A stretch of DNA of 9,879 bases from Candidatus Methylomirabilia bacterium (GTDB lineage: Bacteria > Methylomirabilota > Methylomirabilia > Rokubacteriales > CSP1-6). This document shows positions 1-9,878 of the stretch, in pieces. The notes beneath the pieces are model-generated. The model had not been told where the DNA came from, did not search any database, and saw only the letters and a program-made list of their open reading frames with translations. The stretch spans positions 1 through 9,879 of the forward strand of contig JBGQHJ010000171.1 in NCBI GenBank assembly GCA_041497895.1, given 5' to 3'. The position numbers and the translations under genes were made by a program. How positions within the stretch are numbered: the stretch's first letter is position 1; each line of letters starts with the position of its first letter.

Positions 1-1
1 C

Positions 2-814
2 TACGTCGATCACCTCCAGCGCGTGCCGTGGGTCGCGGGCAAAGCGCCCTCGACGGCCGCGCCCGTGGTGCCCCACGCCGACGCGGCGGAGCGGCTGATG
101 GCGGAGACGCCGTCGCGCCTCTCCTCGGACACTCACATGATCGGCGTGCTGCTCGCGCCCCCGCTCAAGCACACCGCGCTCGACCGCATCGAGCTGGTGG
201 CGCTCGACGAGGAGCGGGCCCTTGCGGTCCTCGTCACCGAGACCGGCTGGGTGACCGCCCGCCCTCTGACCGTGTCGCCCCGCGGGGGCGGCGAGGAGCT
301 GCGCGAGACCGGCCGGGCCCTGACCCGGCGGTTCCGCGGCAAGACGTTCCAGGAGATCCTCGACGAGCTGGCCGCGCCCGCGGATCCACTCGATCCGCTG
401 TGGACGCGGAGCCGTGGGCTGCTCGAGGAGGTCGTGGCCCTGCTGCGCGACCGGACCCTCTACGTGAGCGGCGCCACCAACATGCTCGACCACCCCGACC
501 TCTCGGACACCGCCACCCTGCGGTCGATGCTGCGGGCCTTCGAGGACAAGGTCCGGCTCGTCGACCTGCTCTCCCGCATGGCCGAGGAGCGCGGGTTGCA
601 CGTCGTGATCGGCAGCGAGAACCCGGTCGAGGACATGCGCGGATGCAGCCTGATCACCTCCACCTACACCTACCGCGACCAGGTCCTGGGGGTGCTGGGG
701 GTGGTGGGACCCCGACGCATGCCGTACTCCGAGGTCATGGCAGTCGTCGACGAGACGGCGCGCATCGTCTCGAGCTCGCTCTCCCGGGTGCGCCAGCAGC
801 TCTACCTGCCGTAG
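2..814 (+). CDS. hrcA: Heat-inducible transcription repressor HrcA (5'-truncated by window edge)
   Basis: Frame is open from base 2 (YVDHL..., the motif that follows the HrcA HTH). C-terminal HrcA motifs are present: G(A)TNMLDHPD, VVIGSEN, CSLITSTY, GVLGVVGPRRMPY. Lies directly upstream of grpE. Stop TAG 812-814. Confidence 0.93.
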   Translation, partial: YVDHLQRVPWVAGKAPSTAAPVVPHADAAERLMAETPSRLSSDTHMIGVLLAPPLKHTALDRIELVALDEERALAVLVTETGWVTARPLTVSPRGGGEELRETGRALTRRFRGKTFQEILDELAAPADPLDPLWTRSRGLLEEVVALLRDRTLYVSGATNMLDHPDLSDTATLRSMLRAFEDKVRLVDLLSRMAEERGLHVVIGSENPVEDMRGCSLITSTYTYRDQVLGVLGVVGPRRMPYSEVMAVVDETARIVSSSLSRVRQQLYLP

Positions 815-839
815 CCCTCCCCCGCCACCCTGGCCCCCC
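815..839 (-). other. C-tract cluster; G-quadruplex consensus on the - strand (or C-rich Rho utilisation site on the mRNA)
   Basis: CCC(815-817) T CCCCC(819-823) GCCA CCC(828-830) TGG CCCCCC(834-839); - strand reads GGGGGG-CCA-GGG-TGGC-GGGGG-A-GGG. Function is inferred. Confidence 0.35.
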
Positions 840-868
840 GAGGCGTGCCGGAGCCCCGGCGGGCCGTC

Positions 869-877
869 TGCTATAAT
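869..877 (+). promoter_or_regulatory. Extended -10 sigma70-type promoter element (TGnTATAAT) for grpE
   Basis: TG(869-870)-C-TATAAT(872-877), a perfect consensus in GC-rich DNA, 11 nt before the grpE ATG. No recognisable -35 element or Shine-Dalgarno. Confidence 0.7.
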
Positions 878-888
878 TACCTTCTGCC

Positions 889-1431
889 ATGGCTGATTCC
901 TTCTACGACGGGCCGATCGCGGACGACAGGGGCGAGGAGAACCAGCGTCTCCGGGAGGCCCTCGAGGCCAAGACCCGGGAGCTCGAAGCCCAGCAGGACC
1001 GTTATCTTCGAACCGTCGCCGAGTTCGACAACGTGCGCAAGCGCGCGGCCCGGGAACGGGAAGAGTACACGCGCTACGCCAACGAGTCGGTGCTGCGCGA
1101 TCTCCTGCCGGTGCTCGACAATCTCGACCGGGCGCTGCTGGCGGCCCGCTCGGAGCCGGCGGCCGCGGTCACGACCGGGGTGGAGCTGATCCAGCGGGAG
1201 CTGCTGCGCGTGCTCGAGAAGTTCGGCCTCACCCCGTTCAGCTCGGTGGGGCAGCCGTTCGATCCCGAGCGGCACGAGGCGGTGGCCCGGGTGCAGCGTC
1301 CGGACCTGCCGGAGATGACCGTCGCGGACGAAACCGGGCGCGGCTACCTGCTCAACGGCCGCGTCCTGCGCCCGGCGATGGTCACGGTGGCGATGGCGCC
1401 GGACGAGCGGGACCAGGCGGCCGACTCGTAG
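889..1431 (+). CDS. grpE: Nucleotide exchange factor GrpE (180 aa)
   Basis: Motifs YLRTVAEFDNVRKR, LLPVLDNLDRAL, GQPFDPERHEAV, GYLLNGRVLRPAMVTV; position between hrcA and dnaJ. Confidence 0.97.
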   Translation: MADSFYDGPIADDRGEENQRLREALEAKTRELEAQQDRYLRTVAEFDNVRKRAAREREEYTRYANESVLRDLLPVLDNLDRALLAARSEPAAAVTTGVELIQRELLRVLEKFGLTPFSSVGQPFDPERHEAVARVQRPDLPEMTVADETGRGYLLNGRVLRPAMVTVAMAPDERDQAADS

Positions 1432-1432
1432 C

Positions 1433-2524
1433 GTGGCGGCCAAGGACTACTACGGGGTCCTCGGGGTCCCCCGCGACGCCGACGACGCGGCGCTGAAGAA
1501 GGCCTACCGCAACCTCGCCCGCGCCTATCACCCCGACCGCAACCCGGGGGACAAGAAGTCCGAGGATCGCTTCAAGGAGATCAGCGAGGCCTACGGTGTC
1601 CTCTCCGACCCGGAGAAGCGGGCCCAGTACGACCGCTTCGGGACGATCGGAGGCGGGATGGGCGAACCCGGATTTGGGACCATCTTCGAGGACCTGTTCG
1701 AGGGATTCTTCGGCAGCGGCGACCGCGGGCGCGCGCGCAACCGAGCGCGCCGGGGCGACGATCTCCGCTACGACCTCGAGATCTCGCTCGAGGAGGCGGC
1801 CCAGGGGATCGAGACGAAGCTGCAGGTCCCCCGCCTCGAGGCCTGCGAGACCTGCCGCGGCTCGGGCGTCGAGCCGGGCAGCCACCCCGAGACCTGCGCC
1901 ACCTGTCGCGGCCAGGGCCAGGTGCGCTTCTCCCAGGGCTTCCTCACGGTGGCCCGCCCGTGCCCACAATGCCACGGCGAGGGCCGGATCATCCGGAATC
2001 CCTGCGCGGCGTGCCGGGGCCAGGGCCGCATCTCGCGCGAGCGGCTGCTCAAGGTCACCATCCCGGCGGGCGTGGAGCACGGCAACCAGCTCCGCCTGAG
2101 CGGAGAAGGCGAGAGCGGGCTCCTGGGAGGCTCTCCCGGCGATCTCTACGTGGTGCTGCATCTGCGCCCGCACGAGATCTTCGTGCGCGACGGCGCGCAC
2201 CTCGTCTGCGAGCTCCCGCTCACCTTCGCGCAGGTGGCGCTGGGAGACGAGATCGAGGTCCCGGTGCTGGACGGCACCGCGCGCCTGAAAATCCCGGCCG
2301 GGACCCAGCCGGGCCAGCGGCTCCTGCTCAAGGGCAAGGGCATGCCCCACCTGCGCGGGCGGGGCCGGGGCGACGCGGTCTACGAGGTCATCGTCGAGGT
2401 GCCGACTCGCCTGACCGCCCGCCAGCGCGAGCTGCTGGAGGAGTTCCGCGGCGCCCACGACGGCGATTCGAGCCCGCGCGTGTCCAAGTTCCTCGAGCGG
2501 ATGAAGCAGCTGTTCGGCAGTTGA
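1433..2524 (+). CDS. dnaJ: Chaperone DnaJ, class A (363 aa, GTG start)
   Basis: J domain (KDYYGVLGV...YHPDRN...RFKEISEAY), short G/F region, four CxxCxGxG zinc repeats (CETCRGSG, CATCRGQG, CPQCHGEG, CAACRGQG) and C-terminal IPAGV/GDLYV/IPAGTQPG motifs. Confidence 0.98.
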   Translation: MAAKDYYGVLGVPRDADDAALKKAYRNLARAYHPDRNPGDKKSEDRFKEISEAYGVLSDPEKRAQYDRFGTIGGGMGEPGFGTIFEDLFEGFFGSGDRGRARNRARRGDDLRYDLEISLEEAAQGIETKLQVPRLEACETCRGSGVEPGSHPETCATCRGQGQVRFSQGFLTVARPCPQCHGEGRIIRNPCAACRGQGRISRERLLKVTIPAGVEHGNQLRLSGEGESGLLGGSPGDLYVVLHLRPHEIFVRDGAHLVCELPLTFAQVALGDEIEVPVLDGTARLKIPAGTQPGQRLLLKGKGMPHLRGRGRGDAVYEVIVEVPTRLTARQRELLEEFRGAHDGDSSPRVSKFLERMKQLFGS

Positions 2525-3414
2525 TGGCGTTCTGGCAGCTCACCGTTCCCGCCGCCGCCGAGACCTCCGACGCGCTGACCAACTTCCTCTGGGAGCAGGG
2601 CGCCCTGGGCGTCGTCGAGGAGGAGGCCCCCGGAATCCCGCCGCGCCTGCGCGCCTTCTTCGCCGAGTCGAAGTCGTCCACCGCGCTCCTGGCCGCGGTG
2701 GCCGCCTACCGCGCCTCGCTCCGCGCGCTCGGCTTCTCGCAGGCCGGTGACGCCGAGATCGCGCCGCTGCTCGACGAGGCGTGGGCGAGCGCCTGGCAGC
2801 AGTCCTTCCCCGCCCGGCTCGTGGGGCGCCGGCTGCGGGTCCTGCCGCCCTGGCTCGACGGCGCGGAGCCCGGGATCGCGCCGGGCGCCGACGACCGGGT
2901 GACCGTGGTCATCGAGCCGGGGCGCGCGTTCGGTACCGGTCACCACGGCACCACCGAGGGGTGCCTCGTCCTCCTCGAGGAGGCCCTCGCCGCCGCGCCC
3001 GGCGCCGCGGTGCTGGACATCGGGACCGGGACCGGCATCCTGGCCATCGCGGCGCTCCGGCTCGGGGCGCGGTCGGTGCTCGGCATCGACGTGGACCCCG
3101 ACGCGATCGCGGCCACCACGGTCAACGCGGAGCGGAACGGCTGCCGCGGTCTCAGCGCGCGGCTGGCCGAGCCCCAGGACGTCTCCGAGCCGGTGCCGAT
3201 CGTGCTGGCCAACCTGCTCACCCACACCCACCTGGCGCTGGCCTCCCACTACGCGCGTCTGGTGACGCCGGGTGGACAGCTCGTGCTGGGCGGCATGCTC
3301 GACAACGAGGACGACCGGGTCAGCGAGGCGCTGGCCACCAGGGGCTTCGAGCGCCGATCGCGCCTGGCCCTCGAGGGCTGGGCCTCGCTGCGCCTGGCCG
3401 CGCCGACGCGGTGA
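2524..3414 (+). CDS. prmA: Ribosomal protein L11 methyltransferase PrmA (296 aa)
   Basis: ATG 2524 overlaps the dnaJ stop (TGATG). Motifs IEPGRAFGTGHHGTT, SAM-binding VLDIGTGTGILAIAA, DVDPDA, VLANL. The ORF-track start at 1960 is an over-extension. Confidence 0.93.
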   Translation: MAFWQLTVPAAAETSDALTNFLWEQGALGVVEEEAPGIPPRLRAFFAESKSSTALLAAVAAYRASLRALGFSQAGDAEIAPLLDEAWASAWQQSFPARLVGRRLRVLPPWLDGAEPGIAPGADDRVTVVIEPGRAFGTGHHGTTEGCLVLLEEALAAAPGAAVLDIGTGTGILAIAALRLGARSVLGIDVDPDAIAATTVNAERNGCRGLSARLAEPQDVSEPVPIVLANLLTHTHLALASHYARLVTPGGQLVLGGMLDNEDDRVSEALATRGFERRSRLALEGWASLRLAAPTR

Positions 3415-4151
3415 CCCGGTTCCATCTGGCCCCGGGCGCGGTCCAGGGAGACCGCGTGACCTTCGACGCCGCCGCTGCGCACCACCTGGGCCGGGTCCTG
3501 CGCGCCGCGGTGGGCGACCTGGTCCAGGCGGTGGATCCTCACGGCGAGCTCCTGTCCGTACGGCTCACCGCCATCGCACCCCGGCGGGCCGAGGGCCTCG
3601 TCGTCGCCCGGGCCCGGCTCGATACCGAGTCGCCGCTGCGCCTGACGCTGGCGCAGGCCGTGCCCAAGGGCGACAAGATGGAGGGCATCGTCCGCATGAC
3701 CACCGAGCTCGGCGTCACCCGCGTCATCCCCCTGTTGACCGAGCGCGGGGTGATCCGGCTCGAGCCCGACCGCTGGAGATCGCGACTCGCCCGCTGGCAG
3801 CGGGTGGCCCGCGAGGCCGCCCAGCAGAGCGGCCGGGCCGCGGTGCCCGAGATCGCGCCGCCCCGCGCGCTCTCGGGCTGGCGTCCCGACCCGGAGGGCG
3901 ATGGCCTGCTCATCTGCCTGTGGGAAGACGAGCCGCGCGGGCTGTCCGGCCTGCTGCCCCCCGGGCCGTGCCAGGCCGTCACCGTGATCGTGGGACCGGA
4001 GGGCGGCCTCAGCGCGGAGGAGGTCCGCGGCCTCGCGGAGGCCGGCGCGCTCATCGCGGGCCTGGGCCCGCGCGTCCTGCGGACGGAGACCGCGGGCGCG
4101 GTGGCGGTGGCGCTCCTGCAGGCCCGCTACGGAGACCTGGGGCGCGCCTGA
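3411..4151 (+). CDS. rsmE: 16S rRNA m3U1498 methyltransferase RsmE (SPOUT; 246 aa, GTG start)
   Basis: GTG 3411 overlaps the prmA stop (GTGA). Motifs HHLGRVLR, KGDKMEGIVRMTTELGV, EAAQQSGR, IVGPEGGLS, LGPRVLRTETA; canonical dnaJ-prmA-rsmE synteny. Confidence 0.95.
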   Translation: MTRFHLAPGAVQGDRVTFDAAAAHHLGRVLRAAVGDLVQAVDPHGELLSVRLTAIAPRRAEGLVVARARLDTESPLRLTLAQAVPKGDKMEGIVRMTTELGVTRVIPLLTERGVIRLEPDRWRSRLARWQRVAREAAQQSGRAAVPEIAPPRALSGWRPDPEGDGLLICLWEDEPRGLSGLLPPGPCQAVTVIVGPEGGLSAEEVRGLAEAGALIAGLGPRVLRTETAGAVAVALLQARYGDLGRA

Positions 4152-4153
4152 CC

Positions 4154-4558
4154 GTGGAGCTGACCGCGACGGGCGCCACGCTCTCCGAGGCCTTCGCCCG
4201 CATCGCCCTCGCCCTCTTCGCCGCCGCCGTCGATCCGGCCACCGTCGGTGACGGCGACACCCGCGAGGTGCGCGCCCATGGTGTCGGCCCCTCCGCCCTG
4301 CTCCAGGCGTGGCTGCAGGAGTGCCTGTACGTGCACGAGGTGGAGGGGTTCGCCTGCCGGGCGATCGAGTTCGCGGTGTTCGAGACCACGCCGGCGGCCG
4401 GAGGCGAGGCGCTCCGCCTGCACGCCATCCTGCGGGGCGAGGAGATCGATCCCTCCCGCCACCCGATCCGGACCGCCATCCGCAACGTCTCGGGCCGCGG
4501 GCTCGCGGTCGAGAACGAGGCCATCGGCTTTCGCGTGAGGGCGATCCTGGATGTGTAG
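4154..4558 (+). CDS. Archease-like protein (SHS2 fold), apparently degenerate (~134 aa; start GTG 4154 or CTG 4148)
   Basis: Pattern G-x-TLSEAF...ALALF...LLQAWLQECLY...LRGEEIDPSRH...ILDV-stop matches the archease family layout. The N-terminal (D/E)HTAD and the KAxTYH motifs are absent. Start codon uncertain. Confidence 0.75.
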   Translation: MELTATGATLSEAFARIALALFAAAVDPATVGDGDTREVRAHGVGPSALLQAWLQECLYVHEVEGFACRAIEFAVFETTPAAGGEALRLHAILRGEEIDPSRHPIRTAIRNVSGRGLAVENEAIGFRVRAILDV

Positions 4559-4559
4559 T

Positions 4560-4609
4560 GTTGCGAAACTGACACAGCGCAAAGTCCGGGGGTGTGTCTT
4601 TCTTGCAAC
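4560..4609. promoter_or_regulatory. Putative upstream activator sequences (paired inverted sites) for a sigma54 enhancer-binding protein
   Basis: GTTGC-N6-GACACA (4560-4576) and its inverted copy TGTGTC-N6-GCAAC (4593-4609), centres 33 bp apart, about -152 to -103 from the predicted sigma54 TSS. Confidence 0.55.
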
Positions 4610-4655
4610 GAATTACATAGCGTCGGCCTTGCGCTCTGGCCATAAATGACCAACA

Positions 4656-4668
4656 AAACAATTACTTA
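4656..4668 (+). promoter_or_regulatory. IHF-like binding site
   Basis: AAACAA-TTAC-TTA versus consensus WATCAA-N4-TTR (one mismatch), within a 30% GC tract (4641-4680), at about -56 to -44, between the putative UAS and the -24/-12 element. Confidence 0.55.
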
Positions 4669-4685
4669 TCTATCTGTGTGCCCAG

Positions 4686-4701
4686 TGGCATCTGGCTTGC
4701 C
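4686..4701 (+). promoter_or_regulatory. Sigma54 (RpoN) -24/-12 promoter of lpxC
   Basis: TGGCAT-CTGGC-TTGCC versus consensus TGGCAC-N5-TTGCW. GG(4687-4688) and GC(4699-4700) are exactly 10 nt apart. Predicted TSS ~4712. Confidence 0.8.
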
Positions 4702-4717
4702 TACTATAGCCACGGCT

Positions 4718-5638
4718 ATGGATCTCCAGCAGACCCTGAGACAGCCGGTCACCCTCTCCGGGATCGGTCTCCATTCGGGTGAGCCGGCCGACATGACGGT
4801 CTCTCCGGCCGGGGCCGACACGGGCATCCTGTTCCGCGCCGCCGACGGCACGCTAATCCCCGCCAATGCCGACCACGTGGTGGACACGAACTCCGCGACC
4901 ACCGTCGGCGCCTTTGGCGTGCGGGTCCGGACCATCGAGCACCTCATGGCGGCGGCCGCGGCTCTCGGCATCGACAACGCGGTGGTGGACATCCGAGGCC
5001 CGGAAGTGCCGGCGGCCGACGGGAGCGCCAAGCCGTTCGTGGACCTGCTGCGCTCGGGGGGACGCGTCACCCTACCCGCGCCGCGCCGTCCGATCGTGGT
5101 GACCGCGCCGATTCGCGTGGGGACCGAGAGCCGCTGGCTCGAGGTGCTGCCGGCGGACTCGCTGCGGGTCAGCTACACGCTCGACAACAACCACCCGGTC
5201 ATCGGGCTGCAGGCGGGCACCTACGGGATCACCGAGGACGTGTTCGCCCAGGAGCTGGCCGCGGCGCGGACCTACGGGTTCCTGCGCGACGTGCCCGCGA
5301 TGCGGCAGAACGGCTTGGCCCGGGGCGGCTCGCTGGAGAACGCGGTCGTGGTAGGCAAGCGCTCGGTCCTGAACGAGAGCCTGCGCTACCCGGACGAGTT
5401 CGTGCGCCACAAGATCCTCGACCTGGTCGGGGACCTGTTCCTGCTGGGGCGCCCGCTGCGGGCGCTGGTGGTGGGGCGCAATGCCGGCCACGCCCTGAAC
5501 TACCAGCTGGTGGCGGCGATCCAGAAGGCGGTCGCCGCGGACCGGCGCCGCGTCGTCGCGCGGGTCATCCGGCCCGCCGCTCCCGCGCCGGTGATCAGCA
5601 CCGGTGACGGCTTCCTCCCGGGTGTGGCGGCCCTCTAG
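4718..5638 (+). CDS. lpxC: UDP-3-O-acyl-N-acetylglucosamine deacetylase LpxC (306 aa)
   Basis: Motifs QQTL...GIGLHSG, TIEHLMAA, EVPAADGSA, ARTYGF, GGSLENAVV, zinc-binding FVRHKILDLVGDL, GHALN. ATG 4718 matches the family N-terminus; the ORF-track ATG 4646 lies upstream of the promoter. Confidence 0.96.
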   Translation: MDLQQTLRQPVTLSGIGLHSGEPADMTVSPAGADTGILFRAADGTLIPANADHVVDTNSATTVGAFGVRVRTIEHLMAAAAALGIDNAVVDIRGPEVPAADGSAKPFVDLLRSGGRVTLPAPRRPIVVTAPIRVGTESRWLEVLPADSLRVSYTLDNNHPVIGLQAGTYGITEDVFAQELAAARTYGFLRDVPAMRQNGLARGGSLENAVVVGKRSVLNESLRYPDEFVRHKILDLVGDLFLLGRPLRALVVGRNAGHALNYQLVAAIQKAVAADRRRVVARVIRPAAPAPVISTGDGFLPGVAAL

Positions 5639-5657
5639 GCCGCCGGCCCGCGTCGCG

Positions 5658-5681
5658 CCCTCGCTCCCAGGCCCCCGCCCC
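5658..5681 (-). other. C-tract cluster; G-quadruplex consensus on the - strand (or C-rich Rho utilisation site)
   Basis: CCC(5658-5660) TCGCT CCC(5666-5668) AGG CCCCC(5672-5676) G CCCC(5678-5681), flanked by the 9-bp inverted repeat GCCGGCCCG(5642-5650)/CGGGCCGGC(5692-5700). Confidence 0.35.
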
Positions 5682-5731
5682 TCCGGCTCGCCGGGCCGGC
5701 TCCGAACCCGCGTCCCCGCTGGGCCCGACGC

Positions 5732-5737
5732 TATAAT
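5732..5737 (+). promoter_or_regulatory. Sigma70-type -10 hexamer (TATAAT) for the DUF4390-ntrY-ntrX unit
   Basis: Perfect TATAAT 12 nt before ATG 5750 and 6 nt before in-frame TTG 5744. No Shine-Dalgarno and no clear -35. Confidence 0.6.
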
Positions 5738-5749
5738 GACGTCTTGGCC

Positions 5750-6346
5750 ATGGGAACCTGCCGCCGCCCGCTCGGGAAGGTCCTGCTCGGCGCGAGCCTG
5801 CTCGCCGGCCTCTTGCTCGGGCTGCCGTCCGGGCCCGCGCCGGTGGGCGCCGAGGTCCGGATCAGCAACCTGTCCGTCTTCCTCAACGACTACGACGTCA
5901 CGGTCACGGTGGTGCTCTTCGGCGCGGTACCCGACGCGCTGCACGAGTCCATCCACACCGGCATCGCGGCCCACGTACGCTACTACGTCGAGCTGTGGCA
6001 GTACACCCGCTGGGGCGTGGACCGGCGTCTGCAGGCGCGCACGGTGGAGCGCCAGCTCACCTACAACGTGCTGACCAAGGAATATAAGGTCGCCGCGCTC
6101 AAGGGTGAGACGCGCGAGCCGATCCTCACCAAGGACCTGCGCGAGGCCCAGCGCGTGATCTCCGAGCTGCGGGTGGGCCAGCTCGCCCCGGTGGCCGCGC
6201 TCGACAAGCAGGAGCTCTACTACGTCCGGGTGCGCTCGGACGTGTCGCTCGGCGGCGTCAACTCGTGGTTCGCCCGCATGACCGGCGAGGCGGAGGAGAC
6301 GCCGTGGGTGCAGTCGGGCCTCCTCACCCCGGTGCGCAACCAGTGA
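5750..6346 (+). CDS. Exported/periplasmic DUF4390-like protein (198 aa; alternative TTG start 5744)
   Basis: Signal-peptide-like N-terminus (RRPLGKVLLGASLLAGLLLGLP...VGA|EV). Pattern 'L..SIHTGI...YYVEL...RQLTYNVLTKEY' resembles DUF4390, a family known to precede ntrY-like kinases. Stop overlaps the kinase start (TGATG). Confidence 0.75.
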   Translation: MGTCRRPLGKVLLGASLLAGLLLGLPSGPAPVGAEVRISNLSVFLNDYDVTVTVVLFGAVPDALHESIHTGIAAHVRYYVELWQYTRWGVDRRLQARTVERQLTYNVLTKEYKVAALKGETREPILTKDLREAQRVISELRVGQLAPVAALDKQELYYVRVRSDVSLGGVNSWFARMTGEAEETPWVQSGLLTPVRNQ

Positions 6347-8586
6347 TGCCGCTCACCCGCCGCCCGGACCGGCTCGACGAGCAGGAGAAGCGAAAGCGCA
6401 ACCTGCTCATCATCGCGGGCATCCTGATCCTGCTCGTGGTGGCCACCGTGTTCGAGGTGGGCATCCGCGCGCCCCAGATCCCCTTCGCCTCGAACCTCAT
6501 CGTCTTCTTCCTCTTCAACCTGAACCTGATCGTCTTCCTGCTGCTGCTGGTGCTGCTGTTCCGCAACCTGGTCAAGCTCTCCTTCGAGCGCCGGCACAAG
6601 ATCATCGGGTCCCGCTTCAAGGCCAAGCTCGTCCTCACCTTCCTGGCCCTGGCCCTGGTGCCCGGCATCCTCATCTTCCTGATCGCGTCCAACTTCATCA
6701 CCACCTCGATCGAGGGCTGGTTCAAGCCCCAGGTGGAGCGGCCGCTCGACCAGGCGATGGAGGTGGCCCAGACCTACTACCAGGGGCTCGAGGGCACCGC
6801 CCTCCGCCACGGGCGCTACATGTCCAAGGTGATCGAGCGTGAAGGGCTGCTTGCCGAGAGCAAGCGCGAGAGCCTCGCCGGCTATCTGGCCGAGCAGCAG
6901 GATCGGCTCGGGGTCGCCGCCATCACCATCTTCAACCGCGAGGGGCAGGAGCTGGTCCACGTCAAGAACCCGGTCCTGGCCAAGGTCCCGACCCGCGAGG
7001 CCAACAGCGAGCACGTGAAGCAGGCGCTCGGCGGACAGGAGATCACCACCGTCCACGAGCTGGACAACGGGGACATGATCCAGGCCATGGTGCCGATCCG
7101 CGACGGCGAGCAGGTCGCCGCCGCGATGGTGGTGGCCATCCACGTGACCCAGCGCCTGGAAGCGCGGCTGCGCAACATCACCCAGGCCTTCCAGGAGTAC
7201 AAGCAGCTCCGGCTCCTCAAGAACCCGATCAAGGGCATCTACATCCTGCTCTTTCTCCTGATGACCCTGATCATCGTCTTCTCGGCCACCTGGTTCGGGC
7301 TCTACCTGGCGCGCGGGATCACCGAGCCGATCCAGATGCTGGCCGAAGGGACGAGAGAAGTCGCGGCGGGCAACCTCGCCTACAAGGTGGAGGTGCGCGC
7401 CGACGACGAGATCGGCATCCTGGTGGATTCCTTCAACCGGATGACCGGCGACCTGGCCGCCTCCCAGTCGAAGCTCGAGGAGACCTACCGGGACCTGCAG
7501 GCCAAGCACACCGAGATGGAGGAGCGCCGCCGCTACACCGAGACGGTGCTGGAGGCGGTCGCCACCGGCGTGGTCTCGCTCGATCCGGACGGCCGCGTCA
7601 CCACCATCAACGGCGCCGCCGAGCGCCTGCTCGGGCTCCACGCCGCGGAGGTCCAGGGCCGCCCCGCCACGGGGGTGTTCCGCTCCCCCGAGTACGTGGA
7701 GATCGACGCGCTGATCCAGCGCATGGGCCGGGTGCGCGAGGGCATGCTCGACCGCGAGGTGCACCTGCGGCGGGACGGCCAGGCGGTGGCCCTGCTGGCC
7801 TCGGCCACCGCGCTGCGCGGGCCGGACGGCGGCTACGTGGGCATGGTGCTCGCCTTCGACGACCTCACCGAGCTGCTCAAGGCGCAGCGGCTGGCCGCCT
7901 GGCGCGAGGTCGCCCAGCGGATCGCGCACGAGATCAAGAACCCGCTCACCCCGATCCAGCTCTCGGCCCAGCGCCTCAGGCGGCGACTCGCCTCCGATCG
8001 GAGCCCGGAAGAGAAGCGACTGCTCGACGAGGCCACCGGCACCATCATCCAGGAGGTCGACGGGCTACGGCAGCTCGTGGACGAGTTCTCCCGCTTCGCG
8101 CGCATGCCCGCGCTCACCCCCAAGCCGACCGATCTGGCCCGGCTCCTGGAGGGCGTGGTGGTGCTCTACCGCGAGTCGCATCCGAGCCTCGCGATCCGCG
8201 CCGTGTTCTCGCCCGACCTGCCACCCATCGAGGTGGACCCGGACCAGATCAAGCGCGCGGTTCTCAACCTGGTGGACAACGCGGTGGAGGCGGTGGGCGG
8301 CACCGGCGAGGTCGTGGTGCAGACGGTCTGGCTCCCCGAGGCCCACCGGGCCCGCATCGTGGTGGCCGACGACGGGCCCGGCATCTCGCCCGACGACCGC
8401 GACCGGCTCTTCGTGCCCTACTTCTCCACCAAGGTCACCGGCATGGGGCTGGGGCTCCCCATCGTCCACCAGATCGTCTCCGACCACGGCGGCACGATCC
8501 GGGTCGAGGACAACGCGCCACACGGCAGCCGCTTCGTCGTCGAGCTGCCCGCCGGGCGCCCGGTGGCCGCGCCGGTGCAGGCCTGA
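6346..8586 (+). CDS. ntrY: NtrY-like membrane sensor histidine kinase (TM-periplasmic-TM-HAMP-PAS-HisKA-HATPase; 746 aa)
   Basis: Three N-terminal hydrophobic helices, a periplasmic domain and a fourth TM. HAMP (ITEPIQMLAEGTREVAAGNL...DEIGILVDSFNRM), PAS (VLEAVATGVVSLDPDGRVTTIN), NtrY-type H-box AWREVAQRIAHEIKNPLTPIQLSAQRL, and N/G1/F/G2 boxes (NLVDNA, DDGPG, FVPYFSTK, GMGLGL). Confidence 0.9.
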   Translation: MPLTRRPDRLDEQEKRKRNLLIIAGILILLVVATVFEVGIRAPQIPFASNLIVFFLFNLNLIVFLLLLVLLFRNLVKLSFERRHKIIGSRFKAKLVLTFLALALVPGILIFLIASNFITTSIEGWFKPQVERPLDQAMEVAQTYYQGLEGTALRHGRYMSKVIEREGLLAESKRESLAGYLAEQQDRLGVAAITIFNREGQELVHVKNPVLAKVPTREANSEHVKQALGGQEITTVHELDNGDMIQAMVPIRDGEQVAAAMVVAIHVTQRLEARLRNITQAFQEYKQLRLLKNPIKGIYILLFLLMTLIIVFSATWFGLYLARGITEPIQMLAEGTREVAAGNLAYKVEVRADDEIGILVDSFNRMTGDLAASQSKLEETYRDLQAKHTEMEERRRYTETVLEAVATGVVSLDPDGRVTTINGAAERLLGLHAAEVQGRPATGVFRSPEYVEIDALIQRMGRVREGMLDREVHLRRDGQAVALLASATALRGPDGGYVGMVLAFDDLTELLKAQRLAAWREVAQRIAHEIKNPLTPIQLSAQRLRRRLASDRSPEEKRLLDEATGTIIQEVDGLRQLVDEFSRFARMPALTPKPTDLARLLEGVVVLYRESHPSLAIRAVFSPDLPPIEVDPDQIKRAVLNLVDNAVEAVGGTGEVVVQTVWLPEAHRARIVVADDGPGISPDDRDRLFVPYFSTKVTGMGLGLPIVHQIVSDHGGTIRVEDNAPHGSRFVVELPAGRPVAAPVQA

Positions 8587-8600
8587 GGCCGAGGGAACCG

Positions 8601-9878
<1,278 letters not shown>

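Follow-up and report, generated by a model that had tools for sequence, protein, structure and literature searches.

LpxC, an antibiotic target, governs flux into lipid A, and its textbook control is proteolytic. A signal-dependent transcriptional route to lpxC is little known and has been documented only in Desulfovibrio. In D. vulgaris, lpxC (DVU2917) is the one target of DVU2934, a sigma-54 response regulator whose motif gel shifts confirmed (Rajeev 2011, PMC3333781), and DVU2934, which carries GAFTGA, is likewise listed as acting on DVU2917 in lipid A biosynthesis (Kazakov 2015, PMC4641369). In D. alaskensis, a sigma-54 site lies just upstream of the mapped lpxC start, the activator site is centered at -101, and lpxC is the only strongly up-regulated gene in the kinase mutant (Kuehl 2014, PMC4045070). 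The validated DVU2934 motif was reported upstream of lpxC in just two other Desulfovibrio, and the operon of the orthologous regulator in S. fumaroxidans immediately follows lpxC (PMC3333781). Here, we examined a stretch of DNA from Candidatus Methylomirabilia bacterium (hereafter the window), which is the entire contig C171, 9,879 bases, of a metagenome-assembled genome. We propose, with a probability of about 0.78, that positions 4559 to 4717 of the window form an enhancer-dependent sigma-54 promoter for lpxC, through which an NtrX-like activator and an NtrY-like kinase would tune lipid A flux.

As we picture it, RNA polymerase with sigma-54 would rest on a TGGCAT-N5-TTGC element as a closed complex, and dimers of the NtrX-like activator, phosphorylated by the NtrY-like kinase, would bind two 18-bp palindromes ~110 and ~145 bp upstream of the start. 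The intervening AT-rich DNA would loop, possibly bent by IHF, the ATPase of the activator would open the promoter, and transcription would begin near 4712, only ~6 nt before the ATG. The outcome would be two-component tuning of lipid A flux at its committed step, like that exerted by DVU2934/Dde_3003 on lpxC. A preliminary description of this DNA had proposed that lipopolysaccharide flux is switched here by sigma-54. Transcriptional control by sigma-54 stands, but "switched" overstates it: tuning is likelier than an on/off response because lpxC is the sole copy found and presumably essential, so the promoter would be on during growth. That description also took such control to be undescribed, whereas it has already been published for D. 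vulgaris and D. alaskensis (PMC3333781, PMC4045070, PMC4641369). The window is thus a Rokubacteria case of the circuit demonstrated in Desulfovibrio; the phylum is new, and the genes are arranged more tightly.

Both circuits have a GAFTGA-bearing two-component activator of sigma-54 and a -24/-12 site immediately ahead of lpxC, and both would act at the committed lipid A step; at ~100 bp upstream, the window also has a putative activator site whose TGTGT...T-rich...ACA(C) sequence resembles that of Dde_3003. They differ in phylum, in having two inverted sites here versus one reported for Desulfovibrio, and in gene arrangement: lpxC here heads the kinase-regulator cluster, with DUF4390 between, whereas the Desulfovibrio regulator operon lies elsewhere and includes an HD-GYP regulator. 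The window circuit is predicted from sequence, and its activator is a putative counterpart of the Desulfovibrio one, supported indirectly by a gene adjacency like that of S. fumaroxidans. FtsH proteolysis in E. coli and Pseudomonas likewise targets LpxC and meets the same demand for balanced lipid A flux, but acts on protein stability, whereas control in the window would act on transcription initiation via an activator-dependent sigma factor. There, lpxC is an essential gene whose product is toxic in excess (summarized in PMC3333781).

The spacer ahead of lpxC is as AT-rich as first described: positions 4561-4720 have a GC content of 0.494, the lowest of any 160-nt stretch in the window, the next lowest being 0.588. 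Within it, TGGCATCTGGCTTGC lies on the lpxC strand where it had been placed, with GG at 4687-4688 and GC at 4699-4700 in the GG-N10-GC layout of the TGGCAC-N5-TTGC consensus, and ends 17 nt before the ATG at 4718; from this element, a transcription start at ~4711-4713 is predicted. We searched LpxC in 30 relatives and took upstream DNA from every locus with the N-terminus, which gave 28 loci; we set aside L022, in which the contig breaks off within lpxC, and three partial matches without a locus. The preliminary description had called for a check on conservation in orthologous regions, and the exact motif is present on the lpxC strand in 28/28 of these loci, drawn from five families of the order. 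It ends 17 nt before the ATG in all but one of the 17 congener loci, the exception having 16 nt, and 31-50 nt before it in the 11 loci from four other families, where LpxC identity is only 52-58%. With 12 further Methylomirabilota-type loci added (L037 was dropped, its contig ending inside lpxC), the set reached 40 loci of 1.7-7 kb, with some contigs perhaps represented twice, and each locus has a single exact motif when both strands are counted, always just before lpxC. Moreover, in an 18-row alignment of the genus, both repeat arms and TGGCA(C/T)-N5-TTGCCT are invariant and the intervening DNA has freely diverged. Together with a GAFTGA-bearing activator encoded nearby, the 28 loci, the single motif per locus in the 40, and these conserved footprints give good comparative support to a sigma-54 enhancer-promoter aimed at lpxC.

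The inverted arms noted earlier were recovered at 4560-4576 and 4593-4609, 17 nt each and 76% complementary. They mark two predicted activator sites, centered at ~-144 and ~-110 from the predicted start and 34 bp apart from center to center, the first directly after the stop codon of the upstream gene. In the genus, the outer blocks of site 1 are invariant while its center varies, and GTGTGTC.TTC.TGCAAC in site 2 is nearly invariant across the 18 rows. The strict pattern TGTKK-N8-MMACA is found upstream of lpxC in 16/17 congener loci, compared with 6 matches in 573 kb of control DNA, that is, the rest of all loci. Site 2 agrees with the published Dde_3003 site at 12/16 positions, on the opposite strand, a level reached by 35 of 2,000 dinucleotide shuffles of the spacer. 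Two smaller features were seen around the sites: TTACATAG, which follows site 2 and is semi-conserved in the genus, and a direct repeat, AATTACATA / AATTACTTA, at 4611-4619 and 4660-4668, 49 nt apart, whose second copy overlaps the IHF-like box.

The candidate activator is encoded three genes downstream of lpxC. Its translation carries an intact GAFTGA and matches Pfam Sigma54_activat (E 7e-71) and Response_reg (E 5e-33). The best NCBIfam match is NtrX, at 473.2 bits below the cut-off of 600 for a query lacking its C-terminus, and we call the protein NtrX-like rather than NtrX because this equivalog cut-off is missed. For the NtrY-like kinase, all Pfam domain matches are above their cut-offs, and the best NCBIfam match is the LIC_11548 family sensor histidine kinase of Leptospira (299 bits). 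In Leptospira, a sigma-54 promoter upstream of lpxC has been predicted in silico, and LIC_11549 is the NtrC-like activator EbpB, to which the review does not tie lpxC (PMC12655853). The likeness to the window thus lies in a predicted sigma-54-type lpxC promoter and in the kinase family; however, the window kinase falls far under the LIC_11548 cut-off of 750, and the Leptospira promoter is itself a prediction. The same kinase-activator-lpxC link may exist in spirochaetes.

Beyond this locus, sigma-54 promoters are in use across the genome. TGGCAY-N5-TTGC occurs at 62 sites, compared with 4, 2, 1, 2, and 2 sites for spacers of N3, N4, N6, N7, and N8, 4 for the reversed string, and 7 for the swapped order. 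This difference of 62 versus 1-7 indicates that the exact spacing is under selection. The genome also encodes ~15 full-length sigma-54 activators.

Similar sites precede lpxC in other phyla. Among the best 80 of 594 relatives in an LpxC alignment, 64 loci lie outside Methylomirabilota and include the gene start, and we scored the 320 nt upstream of lpxC in each for the sigma-54 motif at a threshold of at least 9 out of 10. On the lpxC strand, 32/64 loci reach this score, compared with 0/64 on the opposite strand of the same region, 0/64 in each of two windows inside lpxC, and 1/64 in a region 680-1000 nt upstream. By taxon label, as read from record titles, the motif is found in 11/19 Acidobacteriota, 11/15 Desulfobacterota/"delta", 6/8 Nitrospirota, and 4/5 Myxococcota loci, and in none of 5 Hydrogenedentota or 12 other loci. 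The palindrome TGTKK-N8-MMACA lies upstream of lpxC in 27/64 loci (16/19, 9/15, 1/8, 0/5, 0/5, and 1/12, in the same order); these palindromes recur at ~-105 and ~-140 from the -24 element, often as pairs in Acidobacteriota. Judged by these matches, a putative promoter and palindrome module is present at lpxC in Acidobacteriota and Desulfobacterota, with promoter-like sites alone in Nitrospirota and Myxococcota, and the candidate cis-module reaches far beyond the range given in the Desulfovibrio papers. Among the titles listed by full-text searches pairing lpxC with sigma-54, in a library that lacks most subscription journals, none suggests such breadth. A 2025 comparison of sigma-54 regulons (PMC12316311) has no mention of lipid A, lipopolysaccharide, or "lpx", and Francke 2011 does not mention lpxC or lipid A and argues only for a general link between sigma-54 and lipopolysaccharide. 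In five Myxococcota loci (L070, L086, L089, L105, and L115), sigma-54-like motifs scoring 8.5-10 lie 79-120 nt ahead of lpxC, but the TGTKK-N8-MMACA palindrome is missing; if these motifs are real, a different activator site is used there.

A broader suggestion, which we put forward tentatively and regard as rather unlikely in its full extent, is that sigma-54 and NtrX-like control of lpxC is an ancient module, made of a palindrome pair at ~-105/-140 and a -24/-12 element, complete in Methylomirabilota, Acidobacteriota, and Desulfobacterota and retained at least as the promoter in Nitrospirota and Myxococcota. It would contribute to, or explain, the failure to delete rpoN in Myxococcus xanthus and Geobacter sulfurreducens, because lpxC is essential and would be wired to sigma-54; such an explanation of rpoN essentiality was not found in the Geobacter regulon paper or its supplements. 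If the suggestion is true, sigma-54 would be indispensable in such carriers through the dependence of lipid A synthesis on it. The window adds Rokubacteria, an uncultured soil lineage, in which kinase and regulator genes are attached to lpxC itself, and the recurrence of the same cis-elements in several other phyla makes the idea testable in cultured Geobacter, Myxococcus, and Acidobacteria, where an envelope signal may be read by an NtrY-like kinase.

Several observations weigh against a regulated sigma-54 promoter at lpxC, and we consider them here with the alternatives on which they bear. Within the window alone, the sigma-54 match is no more than chance: 0.63 matches with at most one mismatch are expected, and 93 of 200 shuffles contain at least one. 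A functionless chance match is nevertheless hardly credible, and the conservation data already contradict it. The match is beyond chance because it is conserved in relatives, in all 28 loci and once per locus in the 40, and because its exact spacing is enriched genome-wide; in other phyla, too, its frequency exceeds that in all four controls. A further difficulty is rpoN, whose absence from the genome the preliminary description had named as counting against its proposal: neither Sigma54_DBD nor Sigma54_CBD was found in this assembly. The gene is present in 17/18 congeners and in 28/31 genomes overall. Given 87% completeness and the 62 motifs, we read the missing rpoN as a probable assembly gap.

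The predicted lpxC leader, ~6 nt without a Shine-Dalgarno sequence, is also unusual. Other families of the order have a longer leader, several with GGAGG. With so short a leader, and with spacing fixed in the genus, lpxC translation would be of the short-leader kind. The -12 element ends 13-17 nt before the lpxC start in the genus, in other Rokubacteria families, and in several Nitrospirota loci (short gaps in L042-L046, L049, L050, L058, and L091, with distant start codons taken from tblastn alignments only), and such short gaps would imply near-leaderless lpxC mRNAs from sigma-54 promoters. As for the start codon itself, an in-frame ATG at 4646 was considered and rejected in favor of 4718 because it precedes the promoter and is not conserved, the surrounding DNA differing freely from one congener to the next. 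In 10 sequences from the order, LpxC residues M1, Q4, R8, G15, G17, H19, and G21 are invariant.

The upstream elements carry uncertainties of their own. The strict palindrome pattern is found in just 1/11 loci from other families of the order; by eye, a related TGTTnC-N6-GnAACA stands in the same place there, indicating that the site has drifted. Furthermore, as RNA the inverted repeat would form a hairpin (-26.4 kcal/mol, z -3.0) whose stability is matched by 2/200 shuffles, and the hairpin begins one base after the stop codon. The repeat might therefore serve mainly to end or stabilize the upstream operon transcript and not as a protein-binding enhancer, which we consider improbable. No U tract follows the repeat, and other phyla have single 18-bp palindromes at enhancer distance without a partner arm. 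Among congeners, mid-arm changes are uncompensated in the partner arm, while the outer GTTGC/GCAAC and inner GACACA/TGTGTC blocks are fixed, a pattern of conservation that suits a protein site better than an RNA stem. An Rfam search of 4450-5800 at E<=1 gave no match. The IHF-like box, confirmed at 4656-4668 and the only match in the window at no more than one mismatch, is the weakest element and statistically weak, with 0.22 matches expected by chance in the window and at least one in 40/200 shuffles. The best IHF match falls at the same place in 12/18 genus rows, but the shuffle statistics are weak, with fractions of 0.01-0.4 for individual sequences, and other families of the order show no consistent box. 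The genome has five HU/IHF-family genes, and IHF may bend the spacer.

The identity of the activator is a separate matter, since its DNA-binding domain lies off the contig end and its NtrX score is under the NCBIfam cut-off. A real sigma-54 promoter could instead answer to another of the ~15 enhancer-binding proteins, the NtrY/NtrX-like pair being merely co-transcribed or separately expressed; the window activator lacks the DNA-binding end that would set its specificity. We judge this alternative unlikely. Although the Desulfovibrio activator operon (DVU2931-2934) lies apart from lpxC (DVU2917), Rajeev et al. took the neighboring position of the genes in S. fumaroxidans to mean that lpxC is linked to the orthologous regulator (PMC3333781). 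Many Acidobacteriota, Nitrospirota, and Myxococcota loci have a promoter-like site without ntrYX within 3 kb downstream, whereas the downstream genes follow lpxC in 38/42 Methylomirabilota-type loci examined, and the order recurs with the promoter in other phyla. By tblastn, lpxC-DUF4390-ntrY is found in 26/29 relatives' loci; of the three that lack this order, L030 gave an lpxC match only, and two (L022 and L035) end before the relevant side. The downstream genes follow in 12/13 further loci (L036-L048), mostly with ntrY: L039 ends inside DUF4390, L046 has ntrY-ntrX without a DUF4390 match, and ntrX follows where the DNA reaches far enough (L040 and L046). Outside the phylum, ntrY-ntrX homologues follow lpxC in Acidobacteriota (L052), Geobacteraceae (L061), Desulfuromonadales (L090), and several Desulfobacterales/"Deltaproteobacteria". 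Thus, the NtrX-like protein is most likely the lpxC activator, a view that gene order suggests.

In Rhodobacter, the published effect of NtrYX on lpxC is negative and indirect: in R. sphaeroides, lpxC is up 8.8-fold on ntrYX deletion, and lpxC has no NtrX site upstream (PMC7240162). The alphaproteobacterial proteins resemble those of the window in the NtrY_N-HAMP-PAS kinase, the receiver-AAA+ regulator, and the link to the envelope and the lpxC transcript (PMC7240162). They differ in that the predicted sites and sigma-54 promoter here lie directly at lpxC, and the window regulator keeps GAFTGA.

Positions 4300-6500 hold no second sigma-54 motif ahead of DUF4390 or ntrY, no sigma-70-like promoter in a scan that used an E. 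coli-type consensus, and no plus-strand terminator; because of this, lpxC, DUF4390, ntrY, and ntrX are probably one transcript, through which the activator would feed back on its own expression. A minus-strand terminator-like site inside lpxC was judged to be chance.

An essential single-copy gene under a strictly activator-dependent promoter implies either constant activation or a second source of transcript. Basal lpxC expression might come from read-through of the grpE-dnaJ-prmA-rsmE-archease genes or from an unrecognized housekeeping promoter, with sigma-54 providing a regulated boost; we regard this as possible but on balance doubtful, and it partly overlaps the sigma-54 reading. LpxC is presumably essential and its gene the sole copy found, and no terminator-like site follows the archease gene; on the other hand, no sigma-70-like site was recognized by the scan above, the -24/-12 element is invariant while neighboring DNA drifts, and the mapped lpxC start of D. 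alaskensis lies at the sigma-54 site (PMC4045070). RNA libraries bear on the same question. Twenty-four runs hold small shares (0.11-0.18) of the sampled words of the window, and four soil/sediment runs from four studies were compared at a likeness of at least 90%; these data are assembled contigs of relatives, which cannot show start, strand, or level. Sequence like lpxC is covered in all four runs. Runs X1, X6, and X10 have no cover over ~4516-4677 and were not used as evidence for a start at 4712. In run X3, the contigs of a relative enter the spacer from both sides: cover extends over 4300-4647 and continues past it, and a further contig spans 4685-5358, preceded by 14 letters; the depth is similar. 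These contigs fit either read-through from upstream or DNA in the library, since RNA libraries can contain DNA.

The features of the window are collected in Table 1. The assembly comprises 5.11 Mb in 280 contigs, with 86.8% completeness and 7.2% contamination, and LpxC is 91-92% identical to that of near relatives (Candidatus Methylomirabilota / Rokubacteria).

Table 1. Genes and predicted regulatory elements of the window
Feature	Position	Strand	Remark
Unassigned 5'-open reading frame before grpE	1-876	+	without Pfam match
grpE, dnaJ, prmA, then rsmE-like methyltransferase gene		+	ahead of archease gene
Archease-domain protein gene	4157..4558	+	stop TAG 4556-4558; exact start uncertain
Predicted activator site 1, TGTTGCGAAACTGACACA	4559..4576	.	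18-bp imperfect palindrome (TGTKK-N8-MMACA); inverted-repeat arm
Predicted activator site 2, TGTGTCTTTCTTGCAACG	4593..4610	.	18-bp, inverted copy of site 1; inverted-repeat arm
IHF-like box, AAACAATTACTTA	4656..4668	+	one mismatch to WATCAANNNNTTR
Sigma-54 -24/-12 element, TGGCAT-N5-TTGC (TGGCATCTGGCTTGC)	4686..4700	+	exact TGGCAY-N5-TTGC match
lpxC (UDP-3-O-acyl-GlcNAc deacetylase), 306 aa	4718..5638	+	Pfam, NCBIfam
DUF4390 protein gene	5744..6346	+	Pfam DUF4390 E 7.7e-17; start uncertain
NtrY-like sensor histidine kinase gene	6265..8586	+	NtrY_N, HAMP, PAS, HisKA, HATPase; start uncertain
NtrX-like response regulator / sigma-54 activator gene	8601..9878	+	receiver, AAA+ with GAFTGA, lid; 3' end, including DNA-binding domain, lost at contig end

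All genes of the window are on the plus strand. The identity of LpxC is clear from Pfam (E 5e-96) and from the NCBIfam lpxC model (276.7 bits versus a cut-off of 187), and a search of the assembly for a second lpxC found none. The DUF4390 gene sits between lpxC and ntrY across the order and is without an NCBIfam match. Upstream of lpxC, the open reading frame 3272-4558 has 428 codons, of which the last 133 form the archease domain (Pfam Archease E 2.7e-22, residues 296-428); its first part runs over the rsmE-like gene in a different frame, and the true archease gene probably has ~135 codons. This archease part is syntenic in most relatives of the order, with no tblastn match in L029, L031, and L034. 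In one congener assembly (locus L023/L041), LpxC was matched in three pieces in different frames, owing either to frameshifts or to misassembly of a long-read contig. At the start of the window (1-2524), dnaJ directly follows grpE, with no dnaK between them.

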